Source of the DNA: an uncultured Archangium sp.
GTDB lineage: Bacteria > Myxococcota > Myxococcia > Myxococcales > Myxococcaceae
Length of the DNA: 27,519 nt
Direction: 5' to 3'
Assembly: GCA_903905455.1 (NCBI GenBank)
Contig: CAIVGN010000022.1
Coordinates: forward strand, 1 to 27,519
Part shown: one piece after another, positions 1-2,718 of the stretch
Numbering within the stretch: position 1 is the stretch's first letter
Layout: every line of letters begins with the position of its first letter
Made by a program: the position numbers and the translations under genes
The notes under the pieces: generated by a model
What the model saw: the letters and a program-made list of their open reading frames with translations, nothing else
Database searches by the model: none
Told to the model about the DNA's origin: nothing

Positions 1-2718
1 CAGCAGGTGCTCGAGGCGAAGGCGGTGCCCAAGCGCACCAGGCCTCCCGCGCGGCTCAACGACGCCACCCTGCTCACCGCCATGGAGACCGCCGGCAAGA
101 CCCTCGATGAACGCGAACTGTCAGAGGCGATGAAGGAGAACGGCCTGGGCACGCCCGCCACCCGCGCCAACATCATCGAGACGTTGCTCACCCGCGCGTA
201 CGTGCAGCGGGAGGGCAAGACGCTGGTCGCCACCGACAAGGGCATCGGGCTCATTGAAGTCGTCGATGCCGAGGTGAAGAGCGCGGCCATGACCGGGGGG
301 TGGGAAGCGCGGCTCCAGCGCATCGCCAAGGGCCAGGGCGAGCTGCCCGAGTTCCTCGCGGGAATTGAGCGGTATGTGGAGTCGGTCATCGGGCGCATCC
401 GCACCACGCCGCCCACGCCCATGGGTGGGCCTCCGGGGGCGGGCGGGCGCAGCGCGTATGTCGCGAGTGCGTCGGCGAGGACTGCGGCGAACTCCTCGGC
501 TGCGATGAGCACCGCGGCGTCACGAGGAACCGCTGCGACGTCGGGAAGTACGGCGGCAGTGTTGGGGCCTGGGCGGCCAGTTCGGCCCCTCACCCCGGCC
601 CTCTCCCCGCTCCCGCAGGGCGAGGGAGGGACGGCAGTGGTTGCGCCAGGGCGTCCGGTTCGGCCCCTCACCCCGGCCCTCTCCCCGCTCGCGCAGGGCG
701 AGGGAGGGACGGCGACGCAGATGCTCTCGCGCTTCGGTCACGCCTCCTTCCGCCCCCACCAGCGCGAGGCCTGCGAGGCCGTCATCGCCGGCAAGGACGT
801 GCTGCTCGTCATGCCCACCGGCGCCGGCAAGTCGCTGTGCTACCAGCTCCCCGGCCTCGCCCGCGGCGGCACCACCCTCGTCATCAGCCCGCTCATCGCG
901 TTGATGGAAGACCAGGTCACCCGGCTCCAGGCCCTGGGCCTGCGCGCCGAGCGCATCCACTCGGGCCGCGCGCGCCTCGAGTCCCGCCGGGTGTGCGCCG
1001 ACTACCTCGCCGGCACCCTCGACTACCTCTTCATCGCCCCCGAGCGCCTCGGTGTCCCCGGCTTCCCCGAGCTGCTCGCCAAGCGCACGCCCTCGCTGGT
1101 GGCCATCGACGAGGCGCACTGCATCTCGCAGTGGGGCCACGACTTCCGCCCCGACTACCGGCTGCTCGGCGCCCGCCTGCCCTCGCTGCGCCCCGCCCCG
1201 GTGATGGCCCTGACCGCCACCGCCACCCCGCGCGTGCAGCAGGACATCGTCGCCCAGCTGAGCCTCGGCACCTCCAGCAAGCAGTTCATCCACGGCTTCC
1301 GGCGCCACAACCTCGCCATCGAGGCCCTCGAGGTGCTGCCCAGGGAGCGGGCCGAGCGCACCCTGGAGTGGCTGCTGCGCAAGGGCCGGCTGCCGGCCAT
1401 CGTCTACGCCGCCACGCGCAAGACCGCCGAGGCCACCGCCGACCTGCTCTCCAGCCGCATGCGCGCCGCGCCGTACCACGCGGGCCTCTCCACCGAGGAG
1501 CGCGACTCGACCCAGACCGCGTTCCTCTCCGGCAAGCTCGACGTGGTGGTGGCCACGGTGGCCTTCGGCATGGGCGTCGACAAGGCCGACGTGCGGACCG
1601 TCATCCACCTCGCCCTGCCCGGCAGCGTCGAGGGCTACTACCAGGAGATCGGCCGCGCCGGCCGCGACGGCCAGCCCTCGCGCGCGGTGCTGATGCACCA
1701 CTTCGTCGACCGCAAGACGCACGAGTTCTTCCTCGAGCGCGACTACCCCGACGCCGCGGTGCTCGCCAAGTTGGCCCGGGCGCTGGACGACACGCCGCAA
1801 GACGCCGAGGCCCTGCGCCGCCGCACGCGCGTGAAGGTCGACGACTTCGAGAAGGCCCTGGAGAAGTTGTGGATCCACGGCGGCGTGGGTGGCGTCACCG
1901 AAGACCAGCTGATCAAGGGCCACGACGCGTGGCAGGCGCCCTACGAAGCCCAGCGCGCGCAGCGGGTCGAGCAGCTCGCGCTCATGGGCCGCTTCGCCGA
2001 GGGGCACCGCTGCCGCATGTTGTCGCTGGTGCAGCACTTCGGCGACCAGGCCGACTCCGGGGAAACGTGTGGCCTGTGCGACGTGTGCGCGCCCACCGCG
2101 TGCATCGCCGCGCTCTTCGAGGCGCCCACGTCAGCCGAGCTGGGGGTGATGTCCGAGCTCCTCGCGCGCCTGGCCGCGAGCCCCGGCCAGGCCAGCGGCC
2201 GGCTGTGTCGCGAGGTGCTGGGCGAGGCCCCCGAGGCGCGGCCGAAGTTCGAGCGCCTGGTGGGTGGACTGGTGCGCGCGGGGCAGCTGCGCGTGGAAGA
2301 AGACTCGTTCGAGAAGGATGGCAAGCGCATCCCCTTTCACCGGCTGTACGTGGTGGGGAAGGCCGACCCGCAGCGCGCGCGGCTGACGCCGACGAGCCGC
2401 CCCGCGCCCGAGCGCAGCACCCGCGGCGCGGCCCCGAAGAAGAAGCGCCGCGCGCGAAGGGAATCGAGCCTGCCCGCAGTCGAGCTGCCCTCGAGCGGGG
2501 CGAACGCCGGGCTGGTGGAGCGGCTGCGCGCCTGGCGCCTCGAAGAGTCGCGGCGACGGCGGGTGCCGGCCTTCCGCGTGCTCACCAACCGCGCCCTGGT
2601 GGCCGTGGCCGAGGCGAGGCCCACCACTGCCCAGGCGCTGCGCGCGGTGCAGGGGCTGGGGCCCAAGGTGGTGAAGGACTCGGGCGCGGAGCTCATCGCC
2701 CTGTGTGCGCGAGGCTGA
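1..2718 (+). CDS. recQ: 5'-partial ORF in which a DNA topoisomerase III (TopB-like) C-terminal region runs in one frame into a full-length ATP-dependent DNA helicase RecQ (helicase core, RQC zinc-binding region, HRDC)
   Basis: Frame 1 is open from nt 1 with no stop until 2718. Residues 1-135 read ...LGTPATRANIIETL...YVQREGKTLVATDKGIGLIEVV...GELPEFLAGIERYVESV, which matches the type IA topoisomerase III C-terminal region. A roughly 105-aa Ala/Ser/Thr/Pro-rich linker follows. From Met at nt 721 the RecQ helicase motifs appear: FGHASFRPHQREA, VMPTGAGKSLCYQLP, DEAHCISQWGHDFRP, ALTATAT, a HRCRM...C-x2-CDVC zinc cluster, and a C-terminal HRDC-like segment (VPAFRVLTNRALVAVAE...). GC3 exceeds 90% in both domains and falls to roughly 75% in the linker. 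Confidence 0.8.
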   Translation, partial: QQVLEAKAVPKRTRPPARLNDATLLTAMETAGKTLDERELSEAMKENGLGTPATRANIIETLLTRAYVQREGKTLVATDKGIGLIEVVDAEVKSAAMTGGWEARLQRIAKGQGELPEFLAGIERYVESVIGRIRTTPPTPMGGPPGAGGRSAYVASASARTAANSSAAMSTAASRGTAATSGSTAAVLGPGRPVRPLTPALSPLPQGEGGTAVVAPGRPVRPLTPALSPLAQGEGGTATQMLSRFGHASFRPHQREACEAVIAGKDVLLVMPTGAGKSLCYQLPGLARGGTTLVISPLIALMEDQVTRLQALGLRAERIHSGRARLESRRVCADYLAGTLDYLFIAPERLGVPGFPELLAKRTPSLVAIDEAHCISQWGHDFRPDYRLLGARLPSLRPAPVMALTATATPRVQQDIVAQLSLGTSSKQFIHGFRRHNLAIEALEVLPRERAERTLEWLLRKGRLPAIVYAATRKTAEATADLLSSRMRAAPYHAGLSTEERDSTQTAFLSGKLDVVVATVAFGMGVDKADVRTVIHLALPGSVEGYYQEIGRAGRDGQPSRAVLMHHFVDRKTHEFFLERDYPDAAVLAKLARALDDTPQDAEALRRRTRVKVDDFEKALEKLWIHGGVGGVTEDQLIKGHDAWQAPYEAQRAQRVEQLALMGRFAEGHRCRMLSLVQHFGDQADSGETCGLCDVCAPTACIAALFEAPTSAELGVMSELLARLAASPGQASGRLCREVLGEAPEARPKFERLVGGLVRAGQLRVEEDSFEKDGKRIPFHRLYVVGKADPQRARLTPTSRPAPERSTRGAAPKKKRRARRESSLPAVELPSSGANAGLVERLRAWRLEESRRRRVPAFRVLTNRALVAVAEARPTTAQALRAVQGLGPKVVKDSGAELIALCARG
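565..720. repeat. Tandem direct repeat, 2 x 78 bp (26 codons each, near-identical), ending exactly at the RecQ ATG
   Basis: GPGRPVRPLTPALSPLPQGEGGTAVV is followed by APGRPVRPLTPALSPLAQGEGGTATQ. Each DNA unit holds an imperfect internal palindrome (CCCTCTCCCCGC...GCGAGGGAGGG) and a GGGAGGG Shine-Dalgarno-like string. The second copy lies 12 nt upstream of ATG 721. Confidence 0.85.

Follow-up and report, generated by a model that had tools for sequence, protein, structure and literature searches.

A probable topoisomerase III–RecQ helicase fusion protein in an uncultured Archangium and its bacterial relatives

The window analysed here, a stretch of 27,519 nt from an uncultured Archangium sp. 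(contig CAIVGN010000022.1), begins inside a long forward-strand reading frame that appears to join a topoisomerase III (Topo III) to a RecQ-family helicase. Frame 1 is open from base 1, and its only stop within 1–2800 is the TGA at 2716–2718. Pfam searches of the 905-amino-acid (aa) translation recognised the C-terminal quarter of Topoisom_bac, followed by DEAD, Helicase_C, RecQ_Zn_bind and HRDC (Table 1). An earlier note on this DNA had reported that the C-terminus of a topoisomerase III and a complete RecQ share a frame with no stop between them, and that a 105-aa low-complexity linker containing a 78-bp tandem repeat joins them, and we found all of this to be so. The note weighed a genuine fusion against a pair of neighbouring genes whose spacer is open by chance, and leaned towards the latter. 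We reach the opposite view: the locus very probably encodes a single fused protein, and the main doubt lies in the assembly of the linker repeat.

Because the window holds only the final 905 codons of the gene, the remainder had to come from elsewhere. The nearest database protein (P0001; 693 aa, 100% identical) lies on a 42,889-bp ENA scaffold, L081, whose base 9210 corresponds to base 1 of the window. There the topoisomerase frame starts at 7779 with VTVVVVAEKPSVARDL..., a typical Toprim N-terminus, which supplies the upstream topB frame that the earlier note had wanted to see. This scaffold supplied the first 477 residues, including Toprim and the catalytic Tyr, and the upstream frame and the window together gave a rebuilt protein of 1382 aa. 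Its expected mass is about 150 kDa, rather than the roughly 170 kDa that had been proposed. The rebuilt protein scores 660 bits against NF005829 (DNA topoisomerase 3; cutoff 597) and 572 bits against TIGR01056 (topB; cutoff 516). Its residues 5–644 align with residues 4–642 of the 653-residue Escherichia coli Topo III chain (1e-89), and it matches the E. coli RecQ catalytic core at 1e-87.

With these curated models exceeded, the N-terminal half can be assigned from its sequence to the Topo III (TopB) subfamily of type IA topoisomerases. Its catalytic Tyr motif, ISYPRTDSRHL, is encoded upstream of the window and aligns with ITYPRSDCRYL of E. coli; the Tyr is kept in 114 of 115 family members, and the Toprim N-terminal Glu (AEKPS) in 112 of 115. 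The Toprim acidic cluster reads ATDAGREGE (about 8085–8110 of the scaffold), with its first Asp and its Glu present. A segment that aligns with the decatenation-loop region of E. coli Topo III is also present, 3 residues shorter and diverged in sequence. The topoisomerase core extends to about residue 610 and is not followed by C-terminal zinc-ribbon domains.

The helicase half lies entirely within the window, as do motifs 0, I, II (DEAH), III and VI. It scores 377.9 bits against TIGR00614 (recQ_fam; cutoff 219.8), and AlphaFold2, run on the window protein, gave a confident RecQ module with two lobes, a helical insert, a zinc subdomain, a winged helix and HRDC. The predicted winged helix is a high-confidence unit of three helices and a beta-hairpin at aa 711–784 of the AlphaFold2 model; Pfam RQC gave no match. 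All four zinc cysteines (the Cys of HRCRM and three in CGLCDVC) are present in 115 of 115 homologues. The models for canonical RecQ were missed (TIGR01389, 461 bits against 640; NF008279, 358 against 1015). In a neighbour-joining tree of the helicase core, built without bootstrap, all fused members and 14 stand-alone proteins form a clade separate from enterobacterial RecQ. The helicase thus looks, by sequence, like a RecQ-family paralogue and not canonical RecQ. The fused members are basal in their clade, and the tree suggests an old fusion with later fissions. A defence-system helicase was also considered on the strength of a DpdF match and set aside, the match reaching 212 bits against a cutoff of 550, with no defence context.

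Between the two halves lies the linker, which AlphaFold2 leaves at a pLDDT (its per-residue confidence) below 50 with no secondary structure. As the earlier note had reported, third-position G+C drops in this part of the gene, from 0.90–1.00 within the domains to 0.70–0.82 across 421–720. A rival reading has topB and recQ as separate neighbours with a spacer open by accident, RecQ starting at GTG 637 or ATG 721 with the GGGAGGG strings as its ribosome-binding sites. An open spacer would not be rare in DNA of 71% G+C: 23% of shuffles of 397–720 lacked an in-frame stop, which with a one-in-three chance of the right frame gives about 8% for an open, in-frame spacer, and non-coding frame 3 is likewise open from 367 to 2753 (2.4 kb). 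The spacer's lowered codon bias, its element of a kind usually found outside genes (see below), the Shine-Dalgarno (SD)-like strings 6 and 12 nt before in-frame starts and the ENA gene caller's 693-aa RecQ all fit this account. However, the topoisomerase frame has no stop, so that on the sequence as it stands translation must run on into RecQ, and a scan of 1–3200 found no promoter-like or terminator-like site, although the sigma-70 consensus that it used may not suit this organism. The open linker is weak evidence taken alone, and its significance therefore rests on comparison with relatives.

That comparison covered the 120 nearest protein clusters, with 115 full-length members aligned. Toprim, Topoisom_bac, DEAD, Helicase_C, RecQ_Zn_bind and HRDC lie in one chain of 1250–1570 aa in 115 of the 120 clusters, and truncation could account for each of the remaining five. 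A scaffold gap interrupts P0001, and P0042, P0048 and P0075 sit on contigs of 2.1–2.8 kb, too small for a fused gene. P0043, a candidate stand-alone orthologue, was rejected, its gene beginning 231 nt from a contig end. Further out, in an exhaustive search of 50%-identity representatives, about 50 of the best 150 carry both halves in one chain, at identities as low as 38–40%. Five of the most distant were confirmed with Pfam, and one is labelled Zetaproteobacteria, the only organism name obtained among the distant members. Species-representative GTDB genomes yielded 11 continuous fused open reading frames (ORFs), in Myxococcaceae, Polyangiaceae, Solibacteraceae, Bryobacterales, Terriglobia, Thermoanaerobaculia, Oligoflexus and an unclassified proteobacterium. 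The earlier note's remark that the two enzymes are normally separate in bacteria is correct for model organisms but not for Myxococcota, nor for many Acidobacteriota and certain other lineages. The orthologue comparison that it proposed gave fusion at the 11 continuous loci and no conservation of the linker, whose equivalents in the 115 homologues span 22–300 aa and defy alignment.

Single chains with linkers of varied length, in most near homologues and down to 38% identity, are hard to reconcile with a chance opening between two genes. Nor is the proposed RecQ start shared: the equivalent of Met 721 is Leu in 107 of the 115 relatives and Met in this sequence only, so that there is no conserved internal start. 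We consider two separate genes extremely unlikely here. Instead, the sequences show a genuine, old and widespread fusion family in several bacterial phyla, as the note's less favoured alternative had it. Across the 115 aligned proteins the Toprim Glu, the catalytic Tyr (SYPRT), the RecQ motif cores, the four zinc cysteines and HRDC are 97–100% conserved, and some motif 0 positions vary. Both catalytic centres are under strong constraint, and the tether is free to vary in length and sequence. The chain thus seems to hold both catalytic partners of the dissolvasome, with their active sites conserved. Many members of a Polyangiaceae-type group (P0044–P0118) lack a segment of about 130 residues, containing the winged helix, between the zinc subdomain and HRDC, and in this group the end of the linker bears a conserved ...PRAPSA...L..LLRE motif.

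The repeat within the linker has a history of its own. Its unit is 26 codons long, (A/T)AV(L/V)(G/A)PGRPVRPLTPALSPL(P/A)QGEGG, with 7 nucleotide differences between the two copies; 3 of the affected codons are synonymous and 4 non-synonymous. The earlier note had called the repeat intergenic in type, and this was borne out: its exact 22-nt core, CCCTCACCCCGGCCCTCTCCCC, occurs in at least 120 metagenome contigs of 48–78% G+C (loci L082–L201). The core is usually followed after 2–12 nt by GGGGAGAGGGAG, giving a 10-bp G+C hairpin, and it is found in both orientations and sometimes paired (consensus CCCTCTCCCC, loop, GGGGAGAGGG). In the window copies the 3' arm is degenerate. It is a ubiquitous hairpin element resembling repetitive extragenic palindromic (REP) sequences. 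Its dispersal was seen in the metagenome scan; no copy of the core was found outside this locus in the 27.5-kb window and 81 loci. An Rfam scan of 380–800 returned chance-level microRNA matches only.

In the linker the element translates as ...RPLTPALSPLxQGEGG. Elsewhere, too, long ORFs encoding unrelated proteins contain it in frame, read as PLTPALSP...GEG or, on the opposite strand, GEGRGEG (for example L109 at 8649, L126 at 7060, L100 at 2624, L195 at 1918 and L130 at 1371). A pattern search found translated relatives in the linkers of six other Topo III–RecQ proteins (P0002, P0019, P0026, P0027, P0028 and P0031) and two more were recognised by eye (P0013 and P0029); most lie directly ahead of the helicase. 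Most copies of the element fall in long open frames, with 13.6% in open stretches shorter than 100 codons as against 2.2% of random positions; since many frames of G+C-rich DNA are open anyway, this test says little. Palindromic elements inserted in frame within coding sequence have reportedly been described in Rickettsia by Ogata and colleagues in 2000, and other REP-type repeats insert likewise. Like those, the linker repeat is short, dispersed, palindromic and in frame in long ORFs; unlike them, it belongs to a different sequence family, occurs in hosts of 48–78% G+C and is duplicated in tandem within a disordered inter-domain tether. On our reading, an unconstrained tether tolerates insertion of the element, and here one insertion has been duplicated in tandem.

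Several observations weigh against a single fused, working enzyme. The first is that continuity over 554–713 depends on assembly through the tandem repeat, which is gapped in the public scaffold, so that the earlier note was right to single out 420–720 for scrutiny. The scaffold has 100 N at 9839–9938 (about 554–630 of the window) inside the repeat, and the same 55 nt flank it on both sides. Removing 155 nt from the scaffold, namely the 100 N and one 55-nt duplicate, gives the window sequence. Apart from this, a single base (1947) distinguishes the two across 12 kb downstream of the gap, which indicates that the window comes from a separate, near-identical assembly. The copy number and exact sequence of the repeat are therefore provisional. 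Both the gap and the 155-nt difference between otherwise matching assemblies would fit a collapse of the repeat, with the true halves out of frame or interrupted. Even so, since the 78-bp period is 26 codons, gain or loss of any whole copy leaves the frame intact. The well-assembled relatives are all in frame, and intact motifs and strong codon bias in both halves, with third-position G+C of 0.95–1.0 in each module, argue that neither is decaying. An assembly artefact therefore seems to us very unlikely. The gap also accounts for the published annotation: 155 is not a multiple of 3, so the scaffold's frame is broken and the gene caller reported a 693-aa RecQ from GTG 637. It called nothing on the topoisomerase frame and placed an antisense 248-aa ORF inside it (8885–9631).

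A second point is that topB and recQ are adjacent and out of frame at three loci (L007, L012 and L033). All three come from one long-read project of metagenome-assembled genomes (MAGs). L012 and L033 were rejected as true split genes, each having four frame changes inside or between domains, and so was L007, which has one frame change in the linker and no start codon before the conserved LL..FGF motif. The likeliest cause of these frame breaks is sequencing indels. It also counts against the fusion that stand-alone RecQ proteins of the same subfamily exist. A Polyangiaceae MAG, JAVTWR01, has both a fused Topo III–RecQ and a stand-alone RecQ of this subfamily (L005, L022).

Third, an SD-like GGGAGGG stands upstream of in-frame GTG 637 and ATG 721; the second, at 702–708, is the one that the earlier note had reported 12 nt before the RecQ Met. 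The locus might thus make two products, the full-length fusion and a free RecQ isoform initiated internally within the REP-derived repeat. The spacings (GTG at 6 nt from the string in copy 1, ATG at 12 nt after copy 2) would permit this, and related elements encoding GEG lie directly ahead of the RecQ start in several orthologues. However, the strings arise automatically from the Gly-Glu-Gly codons of the element, the family has no conserved start codon at this place, and the RNA of the window copies (554–720) folds no better than shuffled sequence (z = 0.36). Nothing supports initiation at GTG 637 or ATG 721, and we regard a second product as unlikely.

The remaining points concern function and not the existence of the fusion. 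E. coli Topo III has DPDREG in Toprim, with the second Asp of the DxD motif, whereas 138 of 141 fused proteins have Gly at this position (D-A-G). D-A-G is probably the Bacillus-type TopB form. Moreover, a dissolving or decatenating function is something that we infer by analogy. We nonetheless lean towards it, for the reasons that follow.

RecQ helicases work together with Topo III-type enzymes in organisms ranging from bacteria to humans. Harmon, DiGate and Kowalczykowski in 1999, and Suski and Marians in 2008, are said to have found that E. coli RecQ and Topo III, with SSB, catenate and decatenate DNA and resolve converging forks. The fused protein contains the same two enzyme families and would be expected to carry out the same reactions, although in E. 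coli they are separate proteins and here they form one polypeptide with a disordered tether of 22–300 aa. Compared with the E. coli enzymes, the helicase carries an additional helical insert and groups in a different clade, and the topoisomerase is nearest to a PRK07726-type Topo III model, with D-A-G in place of D-x-D. The eukaryotic complexes BLM–TOP3A–RMI1/2 and Sgs1–Top3–Rmi1 likewise combine a RecQ helicase bearing HRDC with a Topo III-type enzyme, and BLM is among the best structural-sequence matches to the helicase half (1e-73). Those complexes are non-covalent and bridged by the helicase N-terminus and the RMI1 OB-fold, whereas here the topoisomerase is joined to the helicase N-terminus through the chain itself. 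No RMI1-like part turned up in the fused protein, though no search was aimed at one.

In the mechanism that we propose, an N-terminal Topo III-type enzyme would be tethered by the disordered linker to a C-terminal RecQ, placed where other type IA enzymes bear C-terminal single-stranded DNA-binding domains. RecQ would spend ATP to translocate 3'→5' and open the duplex at converging branch points, and the tethered Topo III would cleave the exposed single strands and pass them, separating the linked molecules without a crossover. One chain could thereby perform the reactions known for E. coli RecQ with Topo III and for BLM–TOP3A: it would decatenate late replication intermediates and dissolve hemicatenanes and double Holliday junctions. 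A tether that is variable and disordered suggests that the fusion serves to keep the partners close and at 1:1 stoichiometry, and not to fix them in a rigid latch geometry such as the one by which reverse gyrase introduces positive supercoils.

In reverse gyrase, too, a superfamily 2 (SF2) helicase-type ATPase is covalently joined to a type IA topoisomerase. It is regarded in the field as the sole natural fusion of this sort, and according to a 2020 paper hyperthermophiles 'uniquely' have one (PMC7245102). Reverse gyrase places the helicase first; here, as the earlier note had pointed out, the order is opposite, with the topoisomerase first and the helicase second. Its helicase is a reduced RecQ-like module with a latch, whereas the present one is a complete RecQ with zinc subdomain, predicted winged helix and HRDC. 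The two modules of reverse gyrase pack through an interface, in contrast to the long, variable and disordered tether found here, and the hosts of the fused family, unlike those of reverse gyrase, are mesophilic bacteria of soil and freshwater. The reverse gyrase model TIGR01054 gave 101 bits against a cutoff of 472, and positive supercoiling would not be expected. It is tempting to speculate that ATP drives the fused topoisomerase to an activity that is absent from either partner alone. This might be processive, directional strand passage, which would make the protein a mesophilic counterpart of reverse gyrase in opposite order, or the autonomous dissolution of hemicatenanes and double Holliday junctions, free of SSB and an RMI1-type partner. 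We find this doubtful; if true, the protein would be a single-chain model for how RecQ drives Topo III.

A natural Topo III–RecQ fusion was not described anywhere in the full-text literature that we searched, which covers subscription journals thinly, so that an earlier mention is possible. Nor could any link be made between the fused family and MXAN_1950, a 'RecQ' of Myxococcus xanthus (PMC12288472). Databases name the members 'DNA topoisomerase 3' or 'RecQ family ATP-dependent DNA helicase', and these generic names, with the gap-caused mis-call at this locus, mean that automated annotation understates the family. The fusion is an under-described family, a new form of a known partnership and not a new kind of system. 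Its conservation provides 'Rosetta-stone' evidence for a functional partnership in bacteria. Studies of how a helicase motor is coupled to strand passage still depend on mixtures of several proteins. The fusion puts both activities in one gene, which could be approached by structural, single-molecule and genetic means in culturable Myxococcota. The natural tether range of 22–300 residues is a built-in test of how much geometry matters.

Table 1. Features of the fused gene in the window, in nucleotide positions of the window or residues of its 905-aa translation.
Feature	Position	Strand	Details and basis
Topo III module, C-terminal part	1..396	+	window aa 1-132, about aa 478-609 of the full protein; Pfam (Topoisom_bac C-terminal quarter, aa 3-119)
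Disordered low-complexity linker	397..708	+	aa 133-236 (about 105 residues); rich in Ala, Pro, Gly, Thr, Ser
Tandem repeat, 78 bp x 2.1 copies as assembled	554..713	+	Tandem Repeats Finder (TRF); 91% identical, no indels
REP-like palindromic element, copy 1	587..630	+	core CCCTCACCCCGGCCCTCTCCCC (587-608), short loop, degenerate 3' arm GGGCGAGGGAGGG
REP-like palindromic element, copy 2	665..708	+	core 665-686
GGGAGGG (624-630), 6 nt, in-frame GTG (637-639)	624..639	+	start of P0001, the ENA-called 693-aa 'RecQ'
GGGAGGG (702-708), 12 nt, ATG (721-723)	702..723	+	possible internal start
RecQ-family helicase module	721..2715	+	Pfam, NCBIfam, E. coli RecQ match, AlphaFold2 layout
Motif 0			sequence LSRFGHASFRPHQ, ahead of helicase lobe 1
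Helicase lobe 1	aa 251-414		Walker A PTGAGKS (Lys 277), DEAH aa 370-373; Pfam DEAD 251-414
Helicase lobe 2	aa 460-557		Pfam Helicase_C 460-557
Helical winged-helix-like insert	aa 568-640		AlphaFold2
Zinc-binding subdomain	aa 642-696		Pfam RecQ_Zn_bind 648-696
Winged helix	aa 711-784		AlphaFold2
Basic disordered stretch	aa 800-824		
HRDC	aa 836-903		Pfam match aa 837-901, 5e-18
Stop codon TGA of the fused ORF	2716..2718	+	sequence

Downstream of the fused gene, the next ORF (131 aa, hydrophobic) begins 35 nt past the RecQ stop (interval 2719–2753), with no terminator-like site between, and the two may be co-transcribed. Two other tandem repeats in the window also have a period that is a multiple of 3, one at 10055–10208 (27 bp x 4.7 copies, 95% matches) and one at 19380–19545 (78 bp x 2.1 copies, 81%); both are probably coding, in other genes.

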